Shown here: positions 46,091-63,229 of the stretch, piece after piece
How positions within the stretch are numbered: position 1 is the stretch's first letter
Layout: each line of letters opens with the position of its first letter
Assembly (NCBI GenBank): GCA_963727775.1
Contig: CAVSHB010000001.1
Span: 1,312,001 to 1,376,000, forward strand
From: an uncultured Nitrospiraceae bacterium
GTDB taxonomy: Bacteria; Nitrospirota; Thermodesulfovibrionia; Thermodesulfovibrionales; SM23-35
DNA: 64,000 bases
Direction of reading: 5' to 3'
The notes under the pieces: generated by a model
Databases searched by the model: none
Seen by the model: only the letters and a program-made list of their open reading frames with translations
Told to the model about the DNA's origin: nothing
Position numbers and translations under genes: made by a program

Positions 46091-46177
46091 GCCGAAGTGG
46101 CGGAACTGGCAGACGCGCTAGGTTCAGGGTCTAGTGGTCGAAAGGCCGTGCGGGTTCGAGTCCCGCCTTCGGCACCA
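46091..46177 (+). tRNA. tRNA-Leu(CAG)
   Basis: Acceptor GCCGAAG/CTTCGGC plus ACCA, anticodon arm CTAGG-TTCAGGG-TCTAG, long variable arm and GGTTCGAGTCC. Confidence 0.97.
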
Positions 46178-46648
46178 AATAAAGTATTAGATATCAATAT
46201 GTTACGAATGTATACCTCTATATATGCCGTCCGCAAATCTTCATCGATACCTGCAACACTTCTTCTTATAAATACTTTATGGATTTGGGTAGAGAGCCAT
46301 ATTCACCTGATCACGCGCGTAGGCGAAACCGCAACTCACGAAGACTTCGCCCCGAAGCATGCATTGGCACCGGGATCGAATGAGGAAGAAATCTCTGTGT
46401 ACCTGAATCTCGACTCCACCTGGACACCATTGGTATTTTCATTAACTAAGAAGTATGCGGGCAACACTTCTTCCTTGTTTACACCACACTAATTTAAATA
46501 TCCTTACCCTGTTTCTTTCCTTTTATACTCCTCGGAATGGGAAAACAGTCCTGACGCCCTATATCACACGTGTGTAACAATCCCGCATTAGAGGCAGATT
46601 TTATCCAGGAATGATTGAATCCACTCTGAGACGTACTTTTCCTCTTAG

Positions 46649-48298
46649 CCCACATAATTCATAAAATTTTGGCATATGAGATTATTGGTGGGTTTTTGAG
46701 TCAAACGAAGACAATAGAAGACTATTGCGAAGCAGTTTTATAGACGAGTCACGATCTGATCCCGTAAAATCAGACGGAGAAGGGCTTCGTGGCAGTTTTT
46801 AAGCGCACTTCACCATTGAGGACATTTCCTGTTGAAGTTTTTCCGTAAGAAAATGTTCAGGTCGTATCAGCAGCAAGCCGATGATATACTAATGCAAAGA
46901 TTTTCTTCCAGGGATAGCCACTGGCTAAGCGAAACCATACCCGTCGGGCTGTCTGGATTACCTGGGCTCCAATCTTCAGAAGCCTCAGCCTTAACTGCTG
47001 TATCTGCATTGAGGCAAATTCTGTTTTCTGAAGAGCTTCCCTGAGCCTCAGAACAAGCCAGTACGCCGCCATATGCAGGAAGAGTCTGAACTGGTTGGCA
47101 ACAAAGCGATGACAACTCAACCGGTCTGCCTTGAGCCCATTTTTAAACTCGTCAATCCGTACCTCACAGGTACCGCCACGCTCGGTGTAAAACTCATAGA
47201 GTTCTTTTGGTTCATAGGAGAGGTTGGTTACGACAAAACGACGGTTAGGTCCCTGTATCAGCCATTCAGCCTTCATGATAACCCGTCGCTCTTTCGGCCA
47301 ACTCTGCGCCTGATATAATCCCTCTGTAAACATCCTCTGTTTTTGTCCTGTTTCCGTATACTGCTTATGCGCTTTCTTGAGAATGGCTTCGATCATCCGC
47401 TCAAGCACATCATTACGGATCAGACCGATCATATATTTGAGACCCTCTTCTTCACAGTATTCATATAACTCTGGTACTGCAAATCCAGCATCGCCACGGA
47501 CGATGATCTCTGTTTTTGGAAACGCCTCCTTAAGTTTCGGAATGATCCGCTTGAGGATCGACACCGCTCCATAACTGGCATGCCGGTTACCAGCTCTGAG
47601 GGCCGCTGTTATCAGTTGCCCTGTGTCAGCATCGTAGATTACAAGCGGATGGTACATGTATTGGTCATAGTAGCCATGAAAGAACGTCAACTGCTGATTG
47701 CCGTATGTCGGATCGTCCGTCCCATCAAGGTCCAGAATAATCCTTTTTGGCTTTCTCTTCCGGTTCCGACGAATGTAAAGATTAATAAAATATTCTCCTA
47801 TCCTGTATAGATCGTTCCGGGTGATTGCGTTTTCCAAGCGTGACAAGGTGGGCTGTGAGCCAAGATCTTCATCGCTCAACTTCCGTCCACAGGCTGTCTT
47901 CAGTGCTGGATCTTTTCTTACTATGTTTGCATCGTTACAGTCCTCATACCCAGCAACGATTTGATATGTCCGCTGACGTAACAGTGTCTCCAGATTGTGA
48001 TCGGTGTAACGGTTGTCTCTTCGGTCTGTAATACATCCTGCCATCCCTGTTATCAACCGCAAAGCATTGTCTGCTTGCCTCACCAGCAACAAGCCCGAAT
48101 CAGAGGTTATCTCCCCTCCCTTAAAATCTACCGTTATTTTTTGCTTCCGTATGAATGAAAAGGTGAGCTGTTTTGTGATACACTCTGTCATATAGCCAAC
48201 CATCCTTTCTTTGGTTTTGAGCTCTCGTAAACTCAATAATACCAAAGGTCTTAGGATTGTTGGCTATTTTTTTAGGCAGAATTTATGAATAATCTGGG
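46649..48298 (-). mobile_element. IS1380-family insertion sequence, 1650 bp
   Basis: Inverted ends CCCACATAATTCATAAA and TTTATGAATAATCTGGG (15/17 identity) enclose one transposase. Confidence 0.9.
46857..48191 (-). CDS. IS1380 transposase
   Basis: FKGGEITSDSG, AGYEDCND, SQPTLSRLEN, LDLDGTDD, RGDAGF and Y..RG..E..I.E.K motifs. Confidence 0.94.
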   Translation of the reverse strand: MTECITKQLTFSFIRKQKITVDFKGGEITSDSGLLLVRQADNALRLITGMAGCITDRRDNRYTDHNLETLLRQRTYQIVAGYEDCNDANIVRKDPALKTACGRKLSDEDLGSQPTLSRLENAITRNDLYRIGEYFINLYIRRNRKRKPKRIILDLDGTDDPTYGNQQLTFFHGYYDQYMYHPLVIYDADTGQLITAALRAGNRHASYGAVSILKRIIPKLKEAFPKTEIIVRGDAGFAVPELYEYCEEEGLKYMIGLIRNDVLERMIEAILKKAHKQYTETGQKQRMFTEGLYQAQSWPKERRVIMKAEWLIQGPNRRFVVTNLSYEPKELYEFYTERGGTCEVRIDEFKNGLKADRLSCHRFVANQFRLFLHMAAYWLVLRLREALQKTEFASMQIQQLRLRLLKIGAQVIQTARRVWFRLASGYPWKKIFALVYHRLAADTT

Positions 48299-49010: not shown

Positions 49011-49901
49011 TTAACTCTTATGAGGGTGTCGTGAACCTCCGGGGAGAAGCCTGGCGACAATCCATGCTATTGCGTAAAGCACGCCGAGGAGGACGACATC
49101 CGTAGGGCCGACGGGGAAATCATATTGGTAAGCGATCCAAAAGCCGAAAAACGCGATCGCACCACCGACTAGCGAGGCCAACATAGTGAACTGGCGCATA
49201 TTGTGCGCAAACAGGTGAGCCATCAGCGCAGGGATAAGCAAAAATCCGAATGCGATAAGCGGGCCGACGCTGAGCACCGCCATCGAGACCGTTAGACCGA
49301 TAAGTATATAGAGCAGCACGTCCCAAAAAATAACGTTCTTGTGAAGTATAATCGCCATCTCGCGGTCGAACGAGACCAAGAGCAACTCCTTGTGGAACAG
49401 TGCAAGAGCCGCAAGTACCAGAGCAAGCGCTGCCGCCGTCAGCACGAGATCGAAATTCGAGATGGTGATGACCTCCCCTTTCAGCATATCGAGCCAACCG
49501 ATTTCGCCGTAGGGGTTCTTTGACAGCAGCAAAATGCCCAATGCGGCGGCCACTACGTATGCAGTGCCGAGCCGGCCTTCGGGTTGTCCGCGACCTTGTC
49601 GCTCCATAAACGCCAACGCCAGAATCGCGGTAAGCGAGAAGGTGATAGATCCGGCAAAGGCGAGCGCGTGAGCGCTGTGTGAACCATGATCTGCCAGATT
49701 GAATCCGAGCCACATGGGAAGCGAGAGCGCGATAGCGACACCCGTCGAAGAAATCTGGGGCAGTGCCACTCCCATGAATACCAGCCGGCGCATCACGAGA
49801 AACACACCGACGAGCGGGCAAGCGAAGCCGATGAGCACGCTGGTGTAGATCGAGTTCCTGAGGAGAAAATCCGGCGAGAGAATCTGATAAAGCGTTTCCA
49901 T
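49011..49901 (-). CDS. Metal ABC transporter permease (ZnuB/MntB family)
   Basis: GVFLVMRRLVF, LVSFD and VGPL..F..L.IPA motifs. Confidence 0.9.
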   Translation of the reverse strand: METLYQILSPDFLLRNSIYTSVLIGFACPLVGVFLVMRRLVFMGVALPQISSTGVAIALSLPMWLGFNLADHGSHSAHALAFAGSITFSLTAILALAFMERQGRGQPEGRLGTAYVVAAALGILLLSKNPYGEIGWLDMLKGEVITISNFDLVLTAAALALVLAALALFHKELLLVSFDREMAIILHKNVIFWDVLLYILIGLTVSMAVLSVGPLIAFGFLLIPALMAHLFAHNMRQFTMLASLVGGAIAFFGFWIAYQYDFPVGPTDVVLLGVLYAIAWIVARLLPGGSRHPHKS

Positions 49902-49902
49902 A

Positions 49903-50616
49903 TCAGTCGATCCTCCCTTCAAACATTTCGGCTATCCGTTCGGCTGTAAGCAGTTCGTTCGTGGTGCCGCATAGCACTTTGCCCTCGTGAAGCCATATGA
50001 CTTGCTCGGCGCCGCGTCGCGCCGCCGCAAAGTCGTGAGTGACGAGCAAGACCGTGATCTTCCTTTCCTTGCGAATCTGCGAGATGAACTCCATCACCGC
50101 ATGCGTCGCATTACGGTCCACACCCGCAGTGGGCTCGTCCAGCACCAGTACATCGGGGCGCGTGGTCAGAGCGCGAGCGATGAGCACGCGCTGTTTCTGG
50201 CCCCCGGAGAGTTCGGCAAAACGCTGGCGGGCAAACTCCTCAGCGCCCGACGCACGCAGGCATTCATACGTGAATGCGCGTTCGACAGGCGGGACAAAAT
50301 GCCCTGCGCGCACGCGTCCATATACGCCCATAAGGGCAACCTCGAACGCAGTCAGCAGATAAATCGAATCGAATTGAATGGATTGGGGTACGTACCCGAA
50401 TACAAGTGGTGCGCCCGCCGATGAGGTATCTATGCGGCCGCCTACCGGTGGAAGCAGTCCAAGCACCGTCTTGAGCAGGGTCGATTTGCCCGAACCGTTT
50501 GCACCGAGAATGGCTGTGAAACTGCCCCGTGCAATAGATAGAGAAATGCCGGATAGCACAGCCTGGTTGTTGTAGCCAATACTTAGGTTGTCCAGTATCA
50601 TAAGTGTTTCATTCAT
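49903..50616 (-). CDS. Metal ABC transporter ATP-binding protein (ZnuC/MntA family)
   Basis: GANGSGKST, GYVPQ, LSGGQKQR, LDEPT and VTHD. Start placed at MNETL. Confidence 0.92.
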   Translation of the reverse strand: MNETLMILDNLSIGYNNQAVLSGISLSIARGSFTAILGANGSGKSTLLKTVLGLLPPVGGRIDTSSAGAPLVFGYVPQSIQFDSIYLLTAFEVALMGVYGRVRAGHFVPPVERAFTYECLRASGAEEFARQRFAELSGGQKQRVLIARALTTRPDVLVLDEPTAGVDRNATHAVMEFISQIRKERKITVLLVTHDFAAARRGAEQVIWLHEGKVLCGTTNELLTAERIAEMFEGRID

Positions 50617-50669
50617 AGTCTGTTGTGTGTGTCCGCCCGATATTTCAGGCGGACACGTTCTCCTTGTCT

Positions 50670-51602
50670 TTATTTCCTCGACTGGACGGCGGTAACCATC
50701 GTGTGAACAATATAGTCCATCATCTTGATGTACGTTTCCGTGTGTGGCACGCCGCCCGGCATGATGGGTAACGTTATCATGGTTGCACCGGTTTGCTCCG
50801 CAATGCGTTTCGGAACTTTCTCTGGGAACTGCGGCTCGCGCACAACAATAGGCACATACTGGGCTTTCATGGCGGCAGTCAGTTCCTCGATGTGACGTGC
50901 TGTCGGATCGATGCCCGGCCTCAGCTCGATCGTGCCGAAATAGTGCATGCCGAAGCGCTCTGCGAAGTATGGCCAATGCTCATGATAGGACACGAACTTA
51001 GTGCCCTTGAGCGGTTTGACTTCCTTCTCCCACTCGGCGATCTTGGCATTGAGCTTGGCGAGATACGCATCGCGGTTGTGTGTGAATTGCGCCTTGTCCT
51101 GTGGTGCGAACTCTACGAGCGCATTATAGATATTCTTAATCGCAGTCTTCGCCAATACCGGATCGAGCATGTAGTGCGGGTTACCGTAGGGGTGAACATC
51201 GCCGGCGGAGTGCTCGGTTGACTTAGGCACATCACGTGGGAAGATGCCTCTGGAGCAGTCCACGTAGCCGGACCTGCCTACCTGGATGCGCGGATTCTTG
51301 CTCGCCTCCAGCAACGCGGGCAGGAAGGCGTGTTCGCAATCAAACCCCACCAGGATCATCAGGTCGGCCCTGTTCATCATGGGCACGAAGCTGGGTTTCA
51401 TCGGCACGCCGTGCGTATCTTCAACGCCGGTAGCCAGGCTGTGGACCTCGACCAAATCCCCACCAACGGCGCGCGTAAAGTCTGCGAGATCGGTGAGTGT
51501 CGTTACAACACGGATTTTGGCCGCATGAGCCGGCATCACACCTATACAAAATACCCCGGCCAGAAAGATGATCGAGAACAAACAAAATAGTTTTGATTTC
51601 AT
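50670..51602 (-). CDS. Metal ABC transporter substrate-binding protein (ZnuA/TroA family)
   Basis: Signal peptide, EDTH, GDVHPYGNPHY and YHEHWPYF. Confidence 0.9.
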   Translation of the reverse strand: MKSKLFCLFSIIFLAGVFCIGVMPAHAAKIRVVTTLTDLADFTRAVGGDLVEVHSLATGVEDTHGVPMKPSFVPMMNRADLMILVGFDCEHAFLPALLEASKNPRIQVGRSGYVDCSRGIFPRDVPKSTEHSAGDVHPYGNPHYMLDPVLAKTAIKNIYNALVEFAPQDKAQFTHNRDAYLAKLNAKIAEWEKEVKPLKGTKFVSYHEHWPYFAERFGMHYFGTIELRPGIDPTARHIEELTAAMKAQYVPIVVREPQFPEKVPKRIAEQTGATMITLPIMPGGVPHTETYIKMMDYIVHTMVTAVQSRK

Positions 51603-51625
51603 ATTGACATTCATCCTTTCCATAT

Positions 51626-53110
51626 TCAGCGTTGCTGCCATCCATGCGAGTGTGAGCCGATGATCCACGCCCATTGCAGGTAAACGGCATTATCGGAGCG
51701 CAGACCGGATGCGACTGCTACGGCATTGCGGTCGGTGTATGTATATTGAAGCCGCAGTTGGTTCCAGTGGCTGAGCGCCCAGGTGATAAACGGAGAATAT
51801 TCGTAAGTCTTGGCTTTGTTGTCCTGGGCATCCTCCACAAAGCCAAACAAGAAGCCGGTTGACCACTGCCTGTGGAACTTGTAATTGAGATACGAGTAAA
51901 GGCCTAAGGAGCCGACAGACAGGCTGGACAGGGCGCTGCCCGAGGGATCCGTCATGTCATAACGGTTGCTGCTGTGAAGCACTTCAGTACCCCAGGTAAG
52001 GCTCTGGAACTGATTGTTACGGAGCGGCTTCCAACTGAGCGCCAGGTCTGCTCCTACCAGACGGCGCTCGCGTTCGGTGAACGTGCTGCCGGCTACCGTA
52101 GGAAACAGAGGATTAACACCGCCTGGGTCCGACCACTGTCCGGCCGTCTTTGGATTCCAGAGGCCTGAAACGCCGGATTCGAGTGAGATATCTGGTGTCA
52201 GATCGAAATATGTGGACAAGCGTCCAAAGTAATTCCAGCCGCTTAAATGACGGAATTGGCCAACATCGTTAGGTGGGTTGTCGCCTCCGAACTGGTTGCC
52301 AACGCCCACTGTCAGGTTGATATAATGCTCGACAGGCACCAACCAGTTGACCTGTATGCCGTCAGTCCTCGATTCGCCGCCTATGTATTGGGCGAGCACG
52401 AGTGGACGGTTCACGAAAGGCAGCTCATGATCGTGGATGTATGACAGCCGGCCGAACTCACCAAAGAACCGGCCCGCCTTCACAGTGAGGTTCCCAGGCA
52501 GCGACTCAGTCTGGAGCGCTGCCTCTTCGATACCAAAAGTCGACTCTCCGGTGTGGGCATCGACTGATGCGTTGGCCACTACATAGGCCTTCGCAAACGG
52601 GTCTACAGAAGCGGCCGCGTTTAGTTCCACGGAACGTTGGAATGCGTCGAACCCGCCGGGCCGGTCACTTCCCGTCTGCGCCGATCCCCTTCCGCGATAC
52701 GAGAAGAGCGTCTCACCCACGAGGCCGATAGAAGGATTGAAAACGCTCGGGACGGTCTTTGTCTGCGCCTCGGCCACCTGATCCACCTTCTCTTTCAACT
52801 CCTGTACCTGCTGCTGTATCTGCCCGGCCGCCAGCGGCGTCTCATTGACAGAGGCACTCTCGGTCGCTGCAGAAGGTTGGGTCTGTCTGACTTCAGCTTT
52901 CAATTCTTCTATCAACTTCCGTTGCTCAGCAATGGTTTGCTCCTGTTTTCTCAGGATTTCTTGAAGTCCTCTTATTTCCTTGATAGTTTGCTCTTGCTTC
53001 TTGAGGGTTTTCTCAAGAGCTTTTACCCGGTCTTCCAAGGTTTCAGCGAATACGCCTGTTGAAAACAATGACAAGATAAATAGCGTGATAAACATGCTCA
53101 TGATTTTCAT
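51626..53110 (-). CDS. Outer-membrane beta-barrel protein with N-terminal coiled coil (putative metal porin)
   Basis: Signal peptide, coiled coil, FNPSI, ASVDPF, IEEA, HDHELPFV.RP and C-terminal GSHSH. Confidence 0.75.
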   Translation of the reverse strand: MKIMSMFITLFILSLFSTGVFAETLEDRVKALEKTLKKQEQTIKEIRGLQEILRKQEQTIAEQRKLIEELKAEVRQTQPSAATESASVNETPLAAGQIQQQVQELKEKVDQVAEAQTKTVPSVFNPSIGLVGETLFSYRGRGSAQTGSDRPGGFDAFQRSVELNAAASVDPFAKAYVVANASVDAHTGESTFGIEEAALQTESLPGNLTVKAGRFFGEFGRLSYIHDHELPFVNRPLVLAQYIGGESRTDGIQVNWLVPVEHYINLTVGVGNQFGGDNPPNDVGQFRHLSGWNYFGRLSTYFDLTPDISLESGVSGLWNPKTAGQWSDPGGVNPLFPTVAGSTFTERERRLVGADLALSWKPLRNNQFQSLTWGTEVLHSSNRYDMTDPSGSALSSLSVGSLGLYSYLNYKFHRQWSTGFLFGFVEDAQDNKAKTYEYSPFITWALSHWNQLRLQYTYTDRNAVAVASGLRSDNAVYLQWAWIIGSHSHGWQQR

Positions 53111-53596: not shown

Positions 53597-54343
53597 TTAC
53601 TTATTTAAACGAAATGCCACCGGTACCAGTACCCATTCGTCAATCGGGGTCTCCCCTTGACGCGCTGGAACAAAGCGCCAGTTTTTTACGGCCTCAGCAG
53701 CGGCATTATCCAAAAGTTTGTAACCAGAGGAGCGGGATATATCAATTTTAACTGCTTTTCCTTCCCGGCTTACCAGCACCTTCAACGTCACTACTCCTTC
53801 CATTCCCATTCGTCTGGCCGAAGCAGGGTAGGCAGGTTTCGGATTGTTCAAATAGGCAGCACCAAACTGGGGAGGGATAACCGAAACAGTAGAAGTACTG
53901 GGTGAGACTTGAGGGTAGATTTGAACAGAGGGCTGGACGGTATTTGATGCCGCTTTATTGCCGGACGGCAAGCTTGTTTCAGGCACTGAAACAGTAGGCG
54001 TGGAGATGGACGGAGCGAGCGTCTCAACTTTGGGCTTAACCTCAGAGGTAGGCGGGCTCGTCGGTTGTTGTATTGGAGCGGGTGTTTGCGGCGGCGATTG
54101 GTGTATCGGCTTGGGCCTTGAAGGTATCGAAACAGCTGTGTGCTTGGCTGGCAACGGCAGCTCAATGAATTGCGCATCTATGGGTTCTAATGACTGGGAC
54201 TGCTCGGCTATCTGTCCCAGCAGTAGCCCGAATCCCCATAGCATCACTCCCCATATCAGTAGAGCCGTTAACAAAACCCAAGGCAGACGCTGCCAAGGGT
54301 TATCGATATCGGCAGATTGACGTGACAAAAAGTCTCTATTCAA
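53597..54343 (-). CDS. tonB: Energy transducer TonB
   Basis: TM anchor, Pro-rich linker, NPKPAYP.SARR.GMEG.V, SSGY.LLD.AA and WRFVPA. Confidence 0.92.
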   Translation of the reverse strand: MNRDFLSRQSADIDNPWQRLPWVLLTALLIWGVMLWGFGLLLGQIAEQSQSLEPIDAQFIELPLPAKHTAVSIPSRPKPIHQSPPQTPAPIQQPTSPPTSEVKPKVETLAPSISTPTVSVPETSLPSGNKAASNTVQPSVQIYPQVSPSTSTVSVIPPQFGAAYLNNPKPAYPASARRMGMEGVVTLKVLVSREGKAVKIDISRSSGYKLLDNAAAEAVKNWRFVPARQGETPIDEWVLVPVAFRLNK

Positions 54344-54740
54344 CGTACTTCACTGCAATCAGAAAATGTTCTGCTCCTGCATGGCGGGCCTCGAGCATGG
54401 CTCGTACCACCACTCCTTCCGGTGCTGCACTATCTGCAGCAACAATGATGTGACCATCCGAATCCTTTAACATGGGATGTAAAGTTCCGGCCAGAGCGTT
54501 AAGCGTCACAGGGGTGCTGTCTAATAAGATTGCGCTCTCCTTAGTCACAGTCAGTGTTACCGGGGTTCTGGCCTGCATCGGTGTAGCCTTGCCCTGTGGA
54601 AGATCAATGGGCAGGGAATGGAGTTTTTGCAAGGCAAGTGACGCAAGCATAAAGGTTGCCAGAAGGAAAAACATTACGTCAATCATAGGTATAATTTCTA
54701 TGCGCCCTCGACGGGACTGCCGGGACCTACGTAGTCTCAT
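54336..54740 (-). CDS. exbD: ExbD
   Basis: IEIIPMIDVMFFLLATF motif. Confidence 0.93.
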   Translation of the reverse strand: MRLRRSRQSRRGRIEIIPMIDVMFFLLATFMLASLALQKLHSLPIDLPQGKATPMQARTPVTLTVTKESAILLDSTPVTLNALAGTLHPMLKDSDGHIIVAADSAAPEGVVVRAMLEARHAGAEHFLIAVKYVE

Positions 54741-55380
54741 GACCACCTCCATTCTTTTCCTGATCCATTCGGATATGATCTACCAGTCGTGTACCAAGGC
54801 GTTCCATTTCATCCATAGTCCTGGATTGCAGGTGCGCAAAGAAGTTAAATGCAAACAGGGCAATAAGGGCAATGATAAGGCCAAGAGTGGTCGCTATTAG
54901 CGCTTGGGCCACTCCACCCGTTATTCCGGTTGGATTTACCAGCCCGGTGCCGCCAATCAACTTGAATGACTCCATCATGCCTATGATTGTCCCTACCAGA
55001 CCAAGCAGTGGCGCCGCAGTCACGATGGTCTCCAACACCCAGAGCCCCCTGTTTAAGGCCTTTTCTATCAACTGCGCCTCGTCTGCAGCACGAGACTCTA
55101 CCCACCAGGCAGGGTTAGCGCGGTTGTCCAGGATCACCTGGAAGAAACGTCTGAAGTAGTTTCCAGGCACAAAAGACTTTATCTGCTCGTCCAATTCTGT
55201 CCATGCAAAACTATAGGTCTCCACCAGTACGAGCAGCGAGGCAGACAGCTTGACATAACGCCTATATACGAACGCCTTATCTATGATAATAGTAAGGGCT
55301 ATAATCCCCAAAAGCAACAGCGGATACACCATCATACCGCCGAATTGCAGGGCCTTTAATGAATTAGAAAAATCGTGCAT
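54727..55380 (-). CDS. exbB: ExbB (MotA/TolQ/ExbB family)
   Basis: APLLGLVGTIIGM and GGVAQALIAT..GL motifs. Confidence 0.93.
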   Translation of the reverse strand: MHDFSNSLKALQFGGMMVYPLLLLGIIALTIIIDKAFVYRRYVKLSASLLVLVETYSFAWTELDEQIKSFVPGNYFRRFFQVILDNRANPAWWVESRAADEAQLIEKALNRGLWVLETIVTAAPLLGLVGTIIGMMESFKLIGGTGLVNPTGITGGVAQALIATTLGLIIALIALFAFNFFAHLQSRTMDEMERLGTRLVDHIRMDQEKNGGGHETT

Positions 55381-55424
55381 ATTCACACTCCTTCTTGAAT
55401 GAAATATATTTATCTTCCATGCGC

Positions 55425-57530
55425 CTAAAAGTAGTATATGACGCTTAGGCGAGCGGTAATCGGTTCTACCGGTTTAAAGTGTCTATCATTTACGCCCTGC
55501 AAGGGCTCCCCCGGCAGCCTGGAGGTATAATAATACGCAATGTCGCTGGCCTTGCTATTGAGTAAGTTCAACCCTTCCAATTCCATCGTCAAGTGCTTAG
55601 AGAATTTGTACCCTATTTGTGCTTCCACCAGGGTTGTGGCCCCTTCATGTTGGCTGTTGTCCTCTATAAGCGGGTACCCTCCAAGATAGCGCACCCTCAA
55701 GGATCCAAAATACGGACCTATATCATGTATTGATACACCCAGGGACCCAACACCTTGAACTGCGCCGGGTATATAATCTCCAACGACGCCGGGAACTTGC
55801 GGACCCGTAGAGCGGGCCTTGGTATATGCATAATCCAAGTCAATCGTTAACCAAGGGGTGGGGGTATAATAGTTGGCAAATTCAAATCCCGTCCGCAGGC
55901 TGGGACGGCCCGGCGAGGTCTCACCGCTATCTCCGTCCCACTGAAGTTCTGAGTCGAAATGCAACTGAAAAAATGTCAGTGAACTCTGAAGCTTTGGAAT
56001 GATAGCAGTGCGTGCGCCGACCTCATATCCCCTGGAACGTACCAACGGCGCAACTCGTTGATTCGGGCCCGCCGTTGGGTCGCTTATAGGAACCGAGGTG
56101 TCGATAGTGCTACGGGCGTCATTACTGTGAAAGCCCTCTCCCGAGTTGATATAGAACTCTGTCTTGGCCCAAGGACCGAATATCAAGCTTAACTTGGGAT
56201 TTACCATGCTGGCGGATGTTCTCCCCGAATTGGCGGTCACGCTTTTGTCGCTTATCTGCAAAAAGTCAACGCGGACACCAGCTTCGGTACGAAACTTTTC
56301 AAACCAATGGAAAGTGTTTTGAAAATACGCTGCTTCGCTGGATTCGACCACGTGGTCGTCCCGCCAAACAGTAAGAACTTGACGATCTTCAGTATGGTTA
56401 AGACCGACATGAATATTGTCATTTTGCAGTTGTATACCTACTTCATTCTCCACCTCATGTCCAAACCATTTGCCAGTCAAGGTATGGCTGGCGTTTAATG
56501 CGCTCATTGTTCTCTTGTCATGCTGTTCAAATTGATCCCCATGGATAGGGTCATCAAGAAAATAGGTGAAGTTTGAATATAACTCCATCGTCTTGTCGAT
56601 AAAATAGAGATTTGCTTTGGTAACGGAATTACCGGTAGTATGCTGCCAGGCCCCGGATAGACTGTAACGGCGAGTATAAGTGAAGTCACTTGGGTCAATA
56701 TAGCCGAAACGCGATATTAAACCCTCGGTTACTGCGCGTTCGGGAATCTGGTTAGTGGCTACCCCCTGGCTTGTATACGCCATTGCAGAGAAGGTAAAGC
56801 GGTCTTGCCCTTCAACTATAGTATAGCGCAACACTCCATTGACTTTTCGGAAGTCTGCGGTATTGGTCCACGGGCCATCGTTATGTATGTATTCCATAGC
56901 CCCGAGAAGGTTTCCTCCCAACAGCTTCATCGAGTCGGCAACAAGGCCGCGCTCATAACCCTGAAATCCCACGGTCGTCTTGGCCATCCCCTGATCCAGA
57001 GTATCTACATAGTTGATGTCAATGGCGCCTACAGAAGAGAAATCCCCGTACTCAGCATAGTAAGGCCCTTTTCTATATTGCATGTTGCTGATGAGTTCGG
57101 GTATCATGAAGTTCAAATCGGAATATCCCTGGCCATGCGCATTAGTGCGTTCATTGACTAACATGCCATCAACGGTAATCCGCAGGTCCGTACCGTGATC
57201 GAGATTAACACCCCTGAGAAAATATTGGTTGGCCTTTCCTTCTCCACTGTGCTGGGTCACGATCAGTCCCGGTGTTACTTCCAATAATTCGCCAATTCGG
57301 TTGTAAGGCCGCGATTGTACCTCCTCCCTCGGGACGGTCCCTTCATTTGCAGAGTCAGCTGTGCCGATCAGATTTTCGGTGGTATCAGTGACCACCACTT
57401 CCTGCAAAGTCTGGATACCGCCAGCGTTGGCCAATGAGACAAAAATCAAGCTAAGTAGCACCACGAATAATTTAGAACAGACTCGGGTCGTTCTCGGTGT
57501 GACATTAAATCGTGCGCGGGGTCTTCTCAT
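55425..57530 (-). CDS. TonB-dependent receptor
   Basis: TonB box EVVVT, plug QHSGEGKANQYFLRG.NLDHGTD and C-terminal Phe. RBS AGGAGGAG before ATG 57530. Confidence 0.92.
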   Translation of the reverse strand: MRRPRARFNVTPRTTRVCSKLFVVLLSLIFVSLANAGGIQTLQEVVVTDTTENLIGTADSANEGTVPREEVQSRPYNRIGELLEVTPGLIVTQHSGEGKANQYFLRGVNLDHGTDLRITVDGMLVNERTNAHGQGYSDLNFMIPELISNMQYRKGPYYAEYGDFSSVGAIDINYVDTLDQGMAKTTVGFQGYERGLVADSMKLLGGNLLGAMEYIHNDGPWTNTADFRKVNGVLRYTIVEGQDRFTFSAMAYTSQGVATNQIPERAVTEGLISRFGYIDPSDFTYTRRYSLSGAWQHTTGNSVTKANLYFIDKTMELYSNFTYFLDDPIHGDQFEQHDKRTMSALNASHTLTGKWFGHEVENEVGIQLQNDNIHVGLNHTEDRQVLTVWRDDHVVESSEAAYFQNTFHWFEKFRTEAGVRVDFLQISDKSVTANSGRTSASMVNPKLSLIFGPWAKTEFYINSGEGFHSNDARSTIDTSVPISDPTAGPNQRVAPLVRSRGYEVGARTAIIPKLQSSLTFFQLHFDSELQWDGDSGETSPGRPSLRTGFEFANYYTPTPWLTIDLDYAYTKARSTGPQVPGVVGDYIPGAVQGVGSLGVSIHDIGPYFGSLRVRYLGGYPLIEDNSQHEGATTLVEAQIGYKFSKHLTMELEGLNLLNSKASDIAYYYTSRLPGEPLQGVNDRHFKPVEPITARLSVIYYF

Positions 57531-57644
57531 AAAATCTCCTCCTGAAAAATAAAAAATAAAAAGCCACAAAGGCATTGTCTGCTATATATAATTCCTTCCA
57601 TATTGCCTCTCACAATTCATATTGAATGTTGCATTCGCCACTGT

Positions 57645-57845
57645 TCAACTGATCATCCTTTTGGCTTCTTCAAAGCGTCTGTTCAATCTTTTATGCTCCA
57701 TATAAAGCCTTACGAGTGTCCTTAACAATTCTTCATTACCAATAGAAGAGACCTTTTCCGCCCAGTCCATGTAAATCTTTGCGTGCTCGTTGTTATGCTC
57801 CGTCCAGTAATTGAGCAACCTTTTGAGTTTTTCCAGTTGTTCCAT
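57645..57845 (-). CDS. Small helical protein with W.EHN.EH motif (putative metal binding)
   Basis: MEQLEKLKRLLNYWTEHNNEHAKIYMDWAEK with RBS GGAGG. Confidence 0.7.
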   Translation of the reverse strand: MEQLEKLKRLLNYWTEHNNEHAKIYMDWAEKVSSIGNEELLRTLVRLYMEHKRLNRRFEEAKRMIS

Positions 57846-57854
57846 GAGTCCTCC

Positions 57855-57908
57855 AAATAAAAAAGCCATGAAAGATCACCTTCGGGTGAAATGCCTTCAT
57901 GGCTTTTT
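57855..57908 (-). terminator. Leader terminator/attenuator hairpin, copy 2
   Basis: AAAAAGCCAUGAAGG-(UCACC CGAA GGUGA)-CUUUCAUGGCUUUUUUAUUU directly before the RBS. Confidence 0.75.
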
Positions 57909-58000
57909 CTGAAATGTTCTTTAAATGTTTTTTTGTTTCAGCCCTTCAGGGCTTTTGAATCTTCAGCAGCGCCTTTTCAAAAAGCCCTCTTTCCCGTCGA

Positions 58001-58061
58001 AAATAAAAAAACCCCGAAAGCTTTTTGACCTGCTGGTCATTTTTTAAGCCTTCGTGGCTTT
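58001..58061 (-). terminator. Leader terminator/attenuator hairpin, copy 1
   Basis: AAAGCCACGAAGGCU-(UGACC AGCA GGUCA)-AGCUUUCGGGGUUUUUUUAUUU. Confidence 0.7.
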
Positions 58062-58119
58062 AATTCCTGATATTTCTTATAAAACAGCTTAGACTCTGAA
58101 CTTCATGTTCGGATAATTT

Positions 58120-58149
58120 AACATACCCCAAAATACAGAAATCCGTCAA
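58120..58149 (-). promoter_or_regulatory. Promoter candidate for the TonB operon leader
   Basis: TTGACG-18 bp-TATGTT. Confidence 0.45.
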
Positions 58150-58235
58150 GCATTTTTTACAACCCTTCGCGGTAGCGTTGAGTCGTGCTACTCCACCACT
58201 CTAAGCATTTTCACTTAAATACCCATTACGTTTAT

Positions 58236-58493
58236 CTATTTGTGCTTGTGGATTTCTTTCGCGTGTCCGGGATGCTTATGTTCATGAGGTCCGTGTTTGC
58301 CCGCATGCTCATGATTGTGAACCTCGGCTTTGCCTTTATGGTCATGTTCATGGCTGTGCTTATGCGGGTGCTCGTGATCGTGCGCGTGGGAATGTTCATG
58401 ACTATGTTTCTCGTCCTTGTGAAGATGCTCGTGGTCGTGAGTATGAGCATGCTTATGCGCATGCTCATGTTTGTGTTCATGTTCACCTTTCAT
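58236..58493 (-). CDS. Histidine-rich (HX)n small protein, putative metal storage/chaperone
   Basis: 33 His in 85 aa. RBS AGGAGG lies 7 nt before ATG. Confidence 0.8.
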   Translation of the reverse strand: MKGEHEHKHEHAHKHAHTHDHEHLHKDEKHSHEHSHAHDHEHPHKHSHEHDHKGKAEVHNHEHAGKHGPHEHKHPGHAKEIHKHK

Positions 58494-58608: not shown

Positions 58609-58803
58609 CTATACTGTAACTGCCTCCACACAGTCTTGCCTCCACAGGCAATTTAACTGATCACACTCATTAACAGAGTGAGTCGCAAAACAATCGGAAT
58701 TTCCCTCTGCCCTCTGTATGTCCCTGATCAATTTTGTCTTATTCATATTCCCAGCCTTGATGCCCATCCTCTTTGCTATTTCTTTAATTTTCTCTTTTTC
58801 CAT
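58609..58803 (-). CDS. Small SAP/Rho_N-like domain protein with four Cys
   Basis: IAKRMGIK...K..LIR.IQRAEGN.DCF...C.Q..CLWR.DC with RBS GAGG. Confidence 0.8.
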   Translation of the reverse strand: MEKEKIKEIAKRMGIKAGNMNKTKLIRDIQRAEGNSDCFATHSVNECDQLNCLWRQDCVEAVTV

Positions 58804-59207: not shown

Positions 59208-60065
59208 ATGAAAAGAATTATTTTAATGATTACGATTGCGGTCTTTTTTTTATTAGGCACTGTAGTAGCGCATCAGGAGGATGTGGCGGGCAAGATCGGT
59301 ATAGTTGAAAAGAGGGGACAGCGAGTACCGCTTGACCTTACGTTTTCTGACGAAAACGGCAAGCCGGTGAAGTTGAGCAATATTGTAACGAAGCCTACCA
59401 TCCTTACTCTCGTCTATTATTCTTGTACTAATATCTGTCCCCAAATGCTGGGAGGGCTTGCCACTACCCTGGGCAGCATAAAACTCACGCCGGGCAAAGA
59501 TTATAACGTAGTGACGATTAGCTTCGATGAAGATGATACCCCGGCCATTGCGAAGAGTCAGAAGGTCAATTATATCAAGGCAACCGGCCTGTCTTTTCCG
59601 GAGGAGGCATGGAAGTTCCTAACCGGAAATAGAGAAAATATCGGGAGGATCACTGAAGCGGTCGGATTCAGTTTCCGAAGAGATGAGGAAACGGGATCTG
59701 TTGGATTCGCCTCAAGAAAAGTGTCACGCGGGTTCATCCATCCGTCAGTGCTGATCTTTCTGGCACCGGATGGCAAGATCACACAGTACGTTTATGTAGA
59801 TCGATCTCACTATGGGACGATGGCGCCGATTGCCTTTTTGCCTGTGGATATTACTACGGCGCTCATTAATGCCTCTCAGGGAAAGGTTTGGACCGGCTCA
59901 AAAAACCCGATAATCCTTTGTTTCCCCAATTTGTCTGAGCAGGAAGCTCGCTTCTACATGATTTTGGCAACCGTCGGGGCGGCGACACTCCTTTGCATAG
60001 TTGCTTTTTTCATTTACCTCAGGAAAACAAGCAGAGAAACGACGTCAAAAATAAATGAGAAATAG
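59208..60065 (+). CDS. SCO1/SenC copper chaperone family protein
   Basis: YYSCTNICP (CxxxC), ISFD, WKFLTG, conserved His in FIHPS and a C-terminal TM helix. Confidence 0.9.
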   Translation: MKRIILMITIAVFFLLGTVVAHQEDVAGKIGIVEKRGQRVPLDLTFSDENGKPVKLSNIVTKPTILTLVYYSCTNICPQMLGGLATTLGSIKLTPGKDYNVVTISFDEDDTPAIAKSQKVNYIKATGLSFPEEAWKFLTGNRENIGRITEAVGFSFRRDEETGSVGFASRKVSRGFIHPSVLIFLAPDGKITQYVYVDRSHYGTMAPIAFLPVDITTALINASQGKVWTGSKNPIILCFPNLSEQEARFYMILATVGAATLLCIVAFFIYLRKTSRETTSKINEK

Positions 60066-60162
60066 ATGATGGTGTTCGATCACAAATCCTACCCGATGGG
60101 TACCTGGCATCCTGCCGAATCTTCAGTAAAAAGGGCTATGCAAATAGTCACCTCACCAGCAG

Positions 60163-61905
60163 CTACTGAACTTTTACCATGAAATCGAAGAGAAGCACCG
60201 TGCCCTGATGGTTCACTTGACTGAAGATCTTATAGACACCTTTGACCGGAAAAACCACGATGGACTCTATCTCCGGTCCGAATTTTTCTCCAGGCTCGGC
60301 GTGCATGTGCATATGATCCATATGAGTGTGAGACTCCCCGGGAATAACACCGTGAGCATGAATGAACTGCTTCAGGTCTGCAAGCACAATGGCGAGGTGC
60401 ATCGGAGCACCTAAATATGGACTTAGATCTGCCACAGGTTTCTTGTTAGACTTAATAAGATATCGGAGTCTTGTCTCCTTGCCCGCCTTGATGATATCAG
60501 GGGATATTTTTAGTGTGACATGATATGCTCCGAAATCTTTCTCCGTGGAGAAATCTAGCTTCGGCTCTCCCATTCTCAGCTGGCTGGAGACTTTAATATG
60601 TGCTGTTTTACTGTAAAGCCCGTCCGCCGTTGCGAAGTCGAGTCCAACTAAATATTCTCCAGCCTTCGGGAAAGTGAAACGTAGCGGGAACGTTGCCTTC
60701 TTCAGCATCTCATCGGTTACAGGGCCTATATCTTCAGGATGTATATGCGCAAAGACGTTTAGATCGCTGCCTATGACAATAGCGTGGAGAATTCTTTCAT
60801 GATGAACCGTGAGCCCTTCAAGCGGCTTTCCGTTTTGCCCTTCGATGTGAACTGTCATCTTTGCACGTGTTCCCGCCTTAATATCTGAGGGGCTTGTCTC
60901 AAGGTGTATGACAGGTTCAGGCCCTGTATTAGCATAATGCTCGTGTTGACCGCCCTCATTACTGGCATGATTCCCCATGGTCATAGCATGTTCGATGTGC
61001 ATAAAATGTCGTGCGGGTATATTATGTGTAAGCAAGCCGGCGCATAGAAACACTCCTGATATGATGATTGCCTCAACACGCGTCCTATGAAGAAACTTCA
61101 TGGCAAATGCCGATTCATCCTGACCGTGCTGCGGAGGAGCAATGTATCTAAAGGCAAGAAAAAGGAGCAGCGCAATCTTCGCGGAAAGCACTCTTCCATA
61201 AGGAGTTGTAAAGAGTAACCCGAAACTTCCGACTTCAACCCAGGCATTATAGAGTCCGGTGAAAACCAATAGGGACAATACAGGGCCGAATAAAACATAA
61301 AATCTGTCAGCAATACCGGATACAATAAGCTGTTGCCTGCTATCCTCCGCAATAGTAGAGGGTCGGAAAATGATTGCTATGGCTATGAGTGCCCCACCCC
61401 AGAGTGAAGAGGCCGTAAAATGAAGCCAATCCGAAAGCTCCATCAAACTCAAGTCACCTAAGTCCGCAGCGTGGCTCGTCGCGCTACGTGAAAAAGCGAT
61501 GGCTGCGGATGCGCATAGCAGAAAGACTGCGACTAAGCGGGAATTCAGATGCCGCCTGCCGACAAACCACACAATCAAAGCCAGTCCGAGTCCACCTGAC
61601 CGAACTATTCCGATTCTCCCGTAGTGTGTCTTTAACAAGACGGTGGATAGTACGGGAAAGATCGCTGCGATGCCAAGACCGCTCATCTCCATGGTACGCT
61701 GTATAAAATTGCTGATGCTGCTTATAACCAGCGCAATCAAACAGAGCATGAGCAATCGCCGTAGCCTGCCGACAAACGGCGGAGAAGTGTCTTCAGCAAC
61801 CTTTGAGTGTGCAGTCCAAAAAAGGCATAAGGCAACTCCAACCAAGGTTGTCAATGCCGTAATGTCTATAAATGTTACTATGCTATGCAAAACCGTTTGG
61901 ACCAT
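60163..61905 (-). CDS. CopD-family copper transport membrane protein fused to a His-rich soluble domain
   Basis: TSHAA, DWLH...SLWGG.L, TGLYN and TPYGRVL.AK. The C-half has two H...DL..F.H.H repeats. Confidence 0.85.
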   Translation of the reverse strand: MVQTVLHSIVTFIDITALTTLVGVALCLFWTAHSKVAEDTSPPFVGRLRRLLMLCLIALVISSISNFIQRTMEMSGLGIAAIFPVLSTVLLKTHYGRIGIVRSGGLGLALIVWFVGRRHLNSRLVAVFLLCASAAIAFSRSATSHAADLGDLSLMELSDWLHFTASSLWGGALIAIAIIFRPSTIAEDSRQQLIVSGIADRFYVLFGPVLSLLVFTGLYNAWVEVGSFGLLFTTPYGRVLSAKIALLLFLAFRYIAPPQHGQDESAFAMKFLHRTRVEAIIISGVFLCAGLLTHNIPARHFMHIEHAMTMGNHASNEGGQHEHYANTGPEPVIHLETSPSDIKAGTRAKMTVHIEGQNGKPLEGLTVHHERILHAIVIGSDLNVFAHIHPEDIGPVTDEMLKKATFPLRFTFPKAGEYLVGLDFATADGLYSKTAHIKVSSQLRMGEPKLDFSTEKDFGAYHVTLKISPDIIKAGKETRLRYLIKSNKKPVADLSPYLGAPMHLAIVLADLKQFIHAHGVIPGESHTHMDHMHMHAEPGEKFGPEIESIVVFPVKGVYKIFSQVNHQGTVLLFDFMVKVQ

Positions 61906-61915
61906 ACTGTTAACC

Positions 61916-62287
61916 TCATTTAATTACGAATGTATAATCGCCCATGGTACGGTGCCCATCCCTCGCTACGACGCTCCAAAACACATGATAGGTTCCTCCC
62001 GGCAGCGGCGGCAAGCTGACTTCGAGCAACGTTGAGTTGGACGGATCTACCCTTCCATTCCCTTTGTCTATTTTTTTCCCGCCTGCGTCTTGAACAGCAA
62101 TCGTGCTGAATACAGGTTCCAGATCGCCATCGAACCAGATACGGACAACAGATGGGGAACCGGAAACCGTTGCCCCCACCTTCGGGTCTGAATGGTCAGG
62201 AAAAACATGCCCATGAGACACTCCCGGAAACAGCAGGAACGCAAGAAAAAATAACGAGGCCATTGTCCTGAGCTTCATGACTTGCAT
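61916..62287 (-). CDS. copC: Copper-binding periplasmic protein CopC
   Basis: Signal peptide, mature N-terminal His (HVFPDHSDP) and G.YHVFWSVVARDGH...G.YTF. Confidence 0.92.
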   Translation of the reverse strand: MQVMKLRTMASLFFLAFLLFPGVSHGHVFPDHSDPKVGATVSGSPSVVRIWFDGDLEPVFSTIAVQDAGGKKIDKGNGRVDPSNSTLLEVSLPPLPGGTYHVFWSVVARDGHRTMGDYTFVIK

Positions 62288-62293
62288 TGTATA

Positions 62294-63229
62294 TCAGCGA
62301 AAAATCGGCCCTCCTATACCCTTGGGGAAAAGGTCATCTATATACAAATGAATCAGGCCGAGAATGCCGACGTTTTTCCCTGAATTCGAGTTGATCGGGA
62401 TTTCCGCGGCGACACCAAACTCCATGAACTTGCCGCACCAGACGATTCCCGGATTAACCGTTCCAGTCGTCTGTCCTTTACCATCCTGTGATAGGTTTGT
62501 CTGCATGGGGAATTCGGTCACAATGATCATACGGTTAAACGGAACGCCGAGTCCGATATCTTTCACGAACGATTGGAGGTATATCAGACTGTATTGAAGG
62601 GTGAAGGCCCAGTTAAAGACGGTTGGATTGCGTTCTATACCTGTGTCCGTGACATTCTTGCTCCGCGTGGGGAAGCTCGTTCCGATAACTCCAGTGATTG
62701 CGAAAGGCCTTAGGAAATTGACCGATTCGGGCAGGTCACCCAATCCCTTTCCAAAGAAGATGGCCGGGGTAATGGTTGAAAAAGAATCCGATACCTGGTG
62801 CGCTCCCGTTCCGCCAATATCGATATCCGTGCCTATCGAGAGGATCAGTTCGTGAGGCTCGTTCGTAAGGAACTGCCATTTCGCGCCAACGCCAAGATTA
62901 TCCCAGCCGTTTGCTGAACTGCCGTCGTCTGCCCGATTGTGCAGGTACGCTTCATGAAATTCGAGCCCGAAGTTAGGAACAATACGTTTGGAATAGTCGA
63001 TATCTATTTCCGTGGTCTTTGCATCGGTTCCCTTCACGCGGTTAATCAGGATCGAAAACTCATCGGAAATAAACGGGTCATCAACCTGAAATGTGGTAGG
63101 GAAAAACCTCTTACCGGCAAACCCGTGGGCAAATGAAGATACCGGCGTCAGCAGAATTAACGATATGCTGAGACCGACGGAAAGCCACAACCATGCTGCA
63201 GATATGCTGCGAGATAAAGCTTCGCTCAT
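62294..63229 (-). CDS. Putative outer-membrane beta-barrel protein leading the copCD operon
   Basis: Signal peptide ending SFA-H, HGFAGKRFFPTT..VDDP and alternating beta-strand patterns. Confidence 0.65.
   Translation of the reverse strand: MSEALSRSISAAWLWLSVGLSISLILLTPVSSFAHGFAGKRFFPTTFQVDDPFISDEFSILINRVKGTDAKTTEIDIDYSKRIVPNFGLEFHEAYLHNRADDGSSANGWDNLGVGAKWQFLTNEPHELILSIGTDIDIGGTGAHQVSDSFSTITPAIFFGKGLGDLPESVNFLRPFAITGVIGTSFPTRSKNVTDTGIERNPTVFNWAFTLQYSLIYLQSFVKDIGLGVPFNRMIIVTEFPMQTNLSQDGKGQTTGTVNPGIVWCGKFMEFGVAAEIPINSNSGKNVGILGLIHLYIDDLFPKGIGGPIFR

Follow-up and report, generated by a model that had tools for sequence, protein, structure and literature searches.

This locus raises the question of what the repeated hairpins do in the leader of a TonB-type metal-uptake operon, on the minus strand of the window (the whole stretch of 64,000 nt that was analysed), and what molecule reads them. 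The initial annotation had described two hairpins of the same build; both are present (elements A and B; Table 1), and all four sequence stretches it had pointed out were found. A feature it had not mentioned is that the 5′ arm of the terminator folds alone into a small hairpin with a GAA loop, here called P1. The element is almost certainly a regulatory RNA. On balance it is likely to be a stop-or-go attenuator for nickel-uptake genes, with the protein DUF3842 as its reader predicted from sequence comparison.

Table 1. Coordinates of the leader, its hairpin copies and the surrounding genes in the window
Feature	Position	Strand	Basis or remark
Sigma-70-like promoter match (TTGACG, 18 nt, TATGTT)	58120..58149	-	Consensus match only; predicted leader start
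Element A, full attenuator: P1 over the 5′ arm of the terminator, P2 nested, then 3′ arm and U tract	58000..58061	-	
P1 of element A (5′ arm), AAGCC-ACGAA-GGCUU hairpin	58046..58060	-	Exclusive with the terminator; likely a candidate protein-binding site
P2 of element A, hairpin nested in the loop of the terminator (its own loop AGCA)	58026..58039	-	
3′ arm of element A	58012..58021	-	
U tract of element A	58000..58011	-	
Copy C, free GAA-loop hairpin 5′ of element B	57940..57953	-	Likely an extra putative binding site
Element B, second full attenuator	57854..57908	-	Directly 5′ of the ribosome-binding site
P1 / 5′ arm core of element B	57893..57903	-	
P2 of element B (loop CGAA)	57876..57889	-	
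3′ arm of element B	57865..57874	-	
DUF8180 protein, 66 aa, conserved W-x-x-H-x-x-x-H	57645..57845	-	First regulated gene; PF26551; alignment
Copy D, 3′-arm-like hairpin and U tract preceding the receptor	57552..57578 (hairpin 57563..57573)	-	
TonB-dependent receptor	55425..57530	-	Pfam; predicted substrate likely nickel
exbB, exbD, tonB	53597..55386	-	Pfam
Porin-like protein and ZnuA/AztC-type metal ABC transporter (binding protein, ATPase, ABC-3 permease)	49011..53110	-	Porin-like protein a weak Pfam match
His-rich 85-aa protein, upstream of the promoter	58236..58493	-	No Pfam or NCBIfam match

The leader has a folding energy of -85.7 kcal/mol (z = -4.62), equalled by 0 of 200 shuffles, and the pattern of A and B occurs twice in the window versus not at all in 200 shuffled windows. 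P1 (GCC-AYGAA-GGC) overlaps the 5′ arm of the terminator, and only one of the two structures can form at a time. Folding of successive prefixes forms P1, then P2, ahead of the terminator in both elements, and the terminator is the more stable fold (-22.4 versus -14.9 kcal/mol for P1/P2 in element A, -26.4 versus -11.8 kcal/mol in element B). The family model scores element B at 58.2 bits, element A at 56.3 bits and copy D at 18.2 bits (E 0.11). Of the 3′-arm-only fourth copy proposed earlier, the sequence is present and the family score is weak; copy D is a degenerate or unrelated terminator and no full family member. For copy C, mutually exclusive folds with an upstream partner at 57976-57988 had been suggested. 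That switch is not conserved: in the relative G022 the copy C hairpin is identical and the partner is not kept. Free upstream hairpins resembling copy C are also found at L047, L239, L240 and L233.

Type-A copies (window 57989-57996; L005, L009-L015) have a conserved 3′ extension ending CGGGAAAG, which adjoins the ribosome-binding site and is able to pair with the 3′ arm of the terminator; it may add a translation-level layer. A leader peptide was considered and rejected, as the 5-codon frame near the leader start is absent in G022. No NikR, Zur or Fur sites are present in 57530-58240 within the mismatches allowed. A single Zur half-site of the delta-proteobacterial consensus given in a passage of PMC545781 lies at 57628-57634 (-), in the gap between the DUF8180 gene and the receptor gene, with no full site at three mismatches or fewer.

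At gathering score, Rfam 15 finds only a tRNA in the window and no leader family; the best Rfam leader match scores 21.4 bits (E 2.4), where the cut-off is 59. The Rfam cobalamin model does work in this genome, with one cobalamin riboswitch at C4:333912, away from the leader. The initial annotation had recognised no cobalamin, NiCo or ANTAR consensus here; the ANTAR comparison is taken up below. BLAST with the leader gives matches in 22 of 24 genomes of the same family, mostly to element A at 74-89% identity. A strict pattern has 97 matches, versus 2 for a reversed control; they fall in 55 of 301 genomes from the phylum, chiefly in those of the window's class. A scan of GTDB contigs adds at least 121 stretches, spread over Desulfobacterota, Nitrospirota, Firmicutes, NC10, Acidobacteriota and spirochaetes, with Sporomusa and Desulfoluna species among the carriers. 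The window's genome has three copies, all preceding metal-uptake operons; the third, on C4, stands before genes for a porin-like protein and for CbiM/NikM. About 11 nt make up the conserved core; P2 stems and linkers vary freely, and inter-arm spacing varies by more than 30 nt across the family. The training set excluded L018, L065, L090, L110, L115 and the duplicates L041, L044, L095 and L096, and 94 of 164 copies were aligned. No published description of this RNA was found in the open literature; supplements and most subscription papers lay outside the search. A term search in the main texts of the motif-discovery papers PMC11109978 and PMC8632094 finds no mention of nickel, cobalt or cbiM; their supplements could list the motif.

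A second conserved terminator, whose arm GCCACAAAG is similar but which has no P1, occurs in cold-shock gene leaders (G000:C2:398905-398947; L292-L295, L297-L299), in DUF3842-positive and -negative genomes alike; it may be a separate attenuator family.

The covariation and the neighbouring genes speak for the sequence-conserved attenuator family, absent from Rfam, that had been proposed for the leaders of metal-uptake genes. In 50 model hits, mostly missed by the strict pattern, 95.4% of terminator-stem cells are paired and double changes are seen at 7 of 13 pairs, a covariation score reached by 0 of 500 shuffles; the alignment behind these figures was itself fitted to the model, and some of its members are antisense or cold-shock-type hits. 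In the training alignment of 94 copies one pair changes on both sides (C-G 57, U-A 28), and the 3′ pyrimidines toggle opposite fixed G residues, both being forced in part by the search pattern. The outer P1 pair is kept in 177 of 180 copies (G-C 160, G-U 11, A-U 6), and several clostridial copies extend the P1 stem with other, covarying letters. The inner hairpin P2 occurs in 174 of 179 copies, where 111 would be expected. Its loops resemble that of P1, containing GAA or ending G-N-A, in 36 of 43 Nitrospirota copies and less often, in 63 of 120 scan copies, outside Nitrospirota; P1 loops are 5 nt, and P2 loops most commonly 4-5 nt. For 48 of 198 copies a promoter match lies no more than 100 nt upstream (3.0 in shuffles), often 10-20 nt before the copy.

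For the 79 scan hits scored by first downstream gene, after 5 of 84 without a downstream frame were left out (L096 being a duplicate), 47 genes are transporters, 9 methyltransferases, 2 DUF3842 and 4 other, with 17 lacking an assignment. The transport genes comprise 14 CbiM/CbiQ/DUF4198, 13 of the TonB system, 7 porins, 10 ABC and 3 ECF-S genes; across the family, copies lie in the 5′ leaders of uptake genes of the CbiM/NikM, TonB, porin and ABC kinds. Scatter at ordinary gene 3′ ends, which with an Rfam match was what had been held to tell against the proposal as far as computation can, is not seen. Class I SAM methyltransferases and tetrapyrrole methylases are also frequent first genes (L054, L058, L099, L100, L105, L106, L113; L056, L083), often ahead of TonB receptors or ABC transporters, and may make or modify a metal carrier.

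The leader would be expected to respond to a metal or to a protein. There is a good chance that nickel is the signal in the window's organism: homologs of the receptor (44-45% identity) lie near hoxN in Cupriavidus pHG1 and, within a hyp cluster of Afipia, divergent from nikR; the genome encodes NiFe hydrogenases; and its cobalamin riboswitch lies elsewhere. The genome also has the DUF3842-CooT pair and no NikR match. The last genes of the operon encode a ZnuA-type transporter, and corrin-type methylases lie under other copies; cobalt or zinc may thus be a signal as well, at this locus too.

The families recurring near the element are DUF3842, CooT and DUF8180. The 80-genome test used 36 pattern-positive and 44 pattern-negative genomes of the window's phylum, chosen blind to DUF3842 state, some of the 36 having fed the model. 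With a cut of E <= 0.0015, fixed after the data were seen, the RNA is present in 51 of 52 DUF3842-positive genomes and in 0 of 28 DUF3842-negative genomes; the lone positive exception (G182) has only a weak RNA hit. All 15 pattern-negative genomes rescued by the model are DUF3842-positive. Eight DUF3842-negative genomes have weak hits (E 0.006-0.04); of six inspected, all are P1-less terminators, five of the cold-shock-leader type. NikR shows the reverse, being in 21 of 28 DUF3842-negative genomes, often beside cbiM, versus 1 of 52 positive ones. The negative genomes mostly keep CbiM (25 of 28) and CooT (22 of 28), so the match of RNA and DUF3842 is not simply a match to the target. Families f2, f4, f7 and f16 each include both states. 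Fisher values of 1e-20 and 2e-12 for the 80 genomes are overstated, since kin are not independent.

In other phyla, DUF3842 is present in 43 of 47 element-bearing genomes and in 0 of 3 chance hits chosen beforehand; this test, on 50 of at least 121 scan loci, covers element-bearing genomes and those chance hits only. Of the 43, one clearly and one at the borderline has NikR. The element without DUF3842 is found at L058, L082, L056 and L153 (completeness of these genomes not given). Among 80 Clostridia genomes, 30 have DUF3842; the family model gives 6 hits, 5 in DUF3842-positive genomes, and a relaxed pattern 7 of 30 versus 0 of 50 negative. At the 30 DUF3842 loci, a loose scan for a GAA-loop hairpin overlapping a terminator gives 4 hits versus 0.15 in shuffles, two with GCGAA loops. 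In all, 10 of the 30 are accounted for, three of them rescued near the gene, and in 20 no element was seen, which counts against the DUF3842 reading; co-distribution in this class is one-way only.

DUF3842 is unlinked to the element in most genomes and co-occurs with it all the same. Its gene directly follows an element at L059, L072, L189, L192, L212, L278 and L286, as expected for autoregulation. In the window's genome DUF3842 is encoded at G000:C1, about 1250416-1250835; some 119 kb separate the DUF3842-CooT pair from the leader, and the pair has a promoter match in front and no element; second DUF3842-CooT copies elsewhere do follow an element, and in most non-clostridial loci CooT adjoins DUF3842. 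In L229, L233 and L236 (Clostridia) DUF3842 lacks an adjacent CooT, and the genes in front of it encode an ECF S-component-like protein and one of about 140 aa. The element at L229 and L233 is a variant whose loop is GCGAA; at L233 a free ACGAA hairpin lies upstream as well. These may be the same reader wired to another nutrient. In L200 and L230 (G390:C25:17094-21198) the element precedes an operon, glycyl-radical enzyme and activase-like by eye, that ends in DUF3842.

In the preferred reading, regulation very probably depends on DUF3842, and direct binding of the RNA by it appears fairly likely. DUF3842, with at least 7953 relatives found, is a 140-aa alpha/beta Rossmann-like domain by predicted fold (pLDDT 90.8), with an invariant glycine-rich motif, an invariant GTN motif, and three near-always basic positions; no His or Cys is invariant. 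By fold it comes closest to nucleotide-binding enzymes (best Z 9.3) and to a UbiX-like flavoprotein (E 3.6e-4); among the matches listed none is an RNA- or DNA-binding protein, only generic Rossmann. No close solved relative was found, and an Atlas search outside the family returned no usable match. A weak hit to ribosomal uL1 (E 0.76) was not confirmed by hhalign (probability 6%). The enzyme-like fold counts against the reading, and on the predicted structure it neither shows nor excludes RNA binding. Enzyme folds have been reused as attenuator proteins, PyrR being a precedent. For DUF3842 itself, the open literature searched yielded only unrelated matter.

Nickel sensing through CooT has about an even chance of being right. 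CooT binds one Ni per dimer with a Kd of 9 nM through Cys2, according to a passage of PMC6006190, and Cys2 is invariant in the CooT partners here. Its fold matches are only CooT structures, with no Sm/Hfq among the matches listed. CooT alone as reader was rejected: it is in 22 of 28 element-free genomes and absent from 9 of 10 chosen element-bearing genomes of Clostridia and Treponema, whose targets include ECF-S and non-metal genes.

During RNA synthesis, P1 and then P2 would fold first, and by default the 3′ arm would invade P1 and terminate transcription. When nickel is scarce, DUF3842, probably oligomeric, would bind the loops and keep P1 closed, stabilised together with P2 or with an upstream free hairpin such as copy C, giving read-through that would turn on DUF8180, the TonB receptor system and the ABC transporter. 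Nickel, probably via CooT, would release DUF3842 so that the terminator forms. Elements A and B in tandem would tighten the switch, and lineages without CooT would use another input. The broader picture, nickel-sensing antitermination that replaces NikR in Nitrospirota, Desulfobacterota and Firmicutes, DUF3842 being a new RNA-binding fold that reads GAA-loop hairpins, CooT, otherwise a CODH accessory protein, its nickel-sensing subunit and CooT-less lineages rewired to other nutrients, is offered only tentatively.

If true, this would give a testable function to a common uncharacterised protein, a possible regulatory role to CooT, whose function a cited review calls unclear, and an explanation of nickel-uptake control in nickel-dependent hydrogen- or CO-using anaerobes (sulfate reducers, syntrophs, acetogens), those found being mostly without NikR, which customarily regulates this uptake. 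The motif marks candidate nickel/cobalt uptake genes, including TonB receptors, porins and methyltransferases, and the element could serve as a compact metal-responsive part in anaerobe engineering.

By analogy, the mode of action would resemble ANTAR and BglG antitermination. Passages of PMC3369931 describe ANTAR dual-hairpin leaders (EutV, NasR, AmiR targets) as two similar-loop small hairpins in a 5′ leader, one overlapping the terminator, with default termination, tandem copies through an operon and RNA found together with protein, all of it alike here. They also give A1/G4 hexaloops and a second hairpin that overlaps the terminator, whereas the element has AYGAA pentaloops or N-G-N-A tetraloops and its first hairpin overlaps, the second being nested, that is, in reverse order. 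The ANTAR-like order does occur in copy C with element B and at L239 and L233. An ANTAR protein as reader was rejected: neither G000 (the window's genome, 96.8% complete) nor G030 has an ANTAR domain, while the same search was positive in three other genomes. The BglG/SacY RAT, per passages of PMC3369931, is likewise a conserved hairpin over a terminator 5′ arm, protein-stabilised as proposed here. It is 29-30 nt with BglG/SacY readers and PTS control; the element has an 11-nt core, metal-uptake targets, an unrelated candidate reader and no Rfam match. Two features general to protein-dependent antiterminators, a conserved hairpin exclusive with a 5′-leader terminator and a co-distributed dedicated protein, are both found. 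The NikR regulon, in a passage of PMC545781, shares nikMNQO-type ECF transporters and nickel TonB receptors as targets; NikR is a DNA-binding repressor and the element an RNA; the leader contains no NikR site, the genome gives no match to NikR itself, and the two nearly exclude each other across genomes. The NiCo (czcD) riboswitch, as passages of PMC11672702 have it, likewise controls metal transport at the RNA level in anaerobes; it is a four-way junction that binds metal directly and serves efflux genes, while the element is made of short hairpins before uptake genes and has no Rfam match. The HMP-PP riboswitch (PMC6478431) similarly has conserved sequence within an intrinsic terminator stem, but acts on thiamin genes, with direct ligand and no dedicated protein, and the element has no Rfam match.

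That DUF3842 acts upstream as a sensor or small enzyme, another protein touching the RNA (CooT, a cold-shock protein or a NusG paralog), is unlikely: the enzyme-like glycine-rich Rossmann fold, the P1-less terminators before cold-shock genes and the CooT gene beside DUF3842 in most non-clostridial loci fit it, yet CooT is distributed the wrong way, its fold matches are only CooT, and no other fitting family recurs near the element in 167 loci, genes elsewhere in the genome being possible. A very small riboswitch embedded in the terminator, P1/P2 binding Ni(II), Co(II) or a metabolite, possibly made by DUF3842, which would then be a regulon member, is less probable still. The HMP-PP riboswitch, an aptamer inside a terminator (PMC6478431), is a precedent, and the element precedes DUF3842, which is enzyme-like, in several loci. 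However, the conserved core spans only about 11 nt, and both the linkers and the P2 stems vary freely; DUF3842 is mostly unlinked and still co-occurs; free upstream hairpins (copy C; L047, L239, L233) better fit a multi-site protein reader; and the NiCo riboswitch affinity, micromolar in a passage of PMC11672702, is high for uptake control.

It is very improbable that the inverted repeats are DNA operators 3′ of the promoter for a metal-sensing repressor, the terminator look being incidental, even with near-palindromic copies often 10-20 nt past a promoter match and an element replacing NikR control: G-U wobbles and double changes keep RNA pairing and not DNA symmetry, the U tract is one-sided, arm spacing varies by more than 30 nt, and no DNA-binding domain is among the DUF3842 fold matches. 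Just as improbable is a mere damping of expression, whether by ordinary terminators, by leaky ones or by a small repeat family. The terminator is indeed the lowest-energy fold, and standard scans detect only hairpins; the same 11-nt arm across phyla, almost only in uptake-gene leaders, presence that follows DUF3842 and NikR, and three own-genome copies all before metal-uptake operons argue against it.

A suggested link to the flanking small His proteins is not supported. DUF8180 as reader was rejected: of the genomes tested, none of 5 with the element has it, and 3 of 5 without the element do. Like close relatives of DUF3842, the DUF8180 cluster bears a Nitrospirota label. The His-rich 85-aa protein is metal-store-like and outside the switch; its gene lies downstream of the element in G022 and is clustered with it in only 6 of 167 loci. 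Genes 3′ of DUF8180 differ between the window and its relatives, which suggests that the receptor-ABC block may have been inserted behind a pre-existing leader. At the far end of the operon, 46091-48245, are a tRNA and a transposase-like 462-aa frame recognised by eye. A 64-aa protein at 58609-58803 (-), 5′ of the His-rich gene, carries four Cys, all within the C-terminal half, and matches neither Pfam nor NCBIfam. The uptake operon adjoins a copper-handling cluster (59208-63229) of SCO1, CopD fused to a His-rich domain, CopC and an unassigned 311-aa protein.
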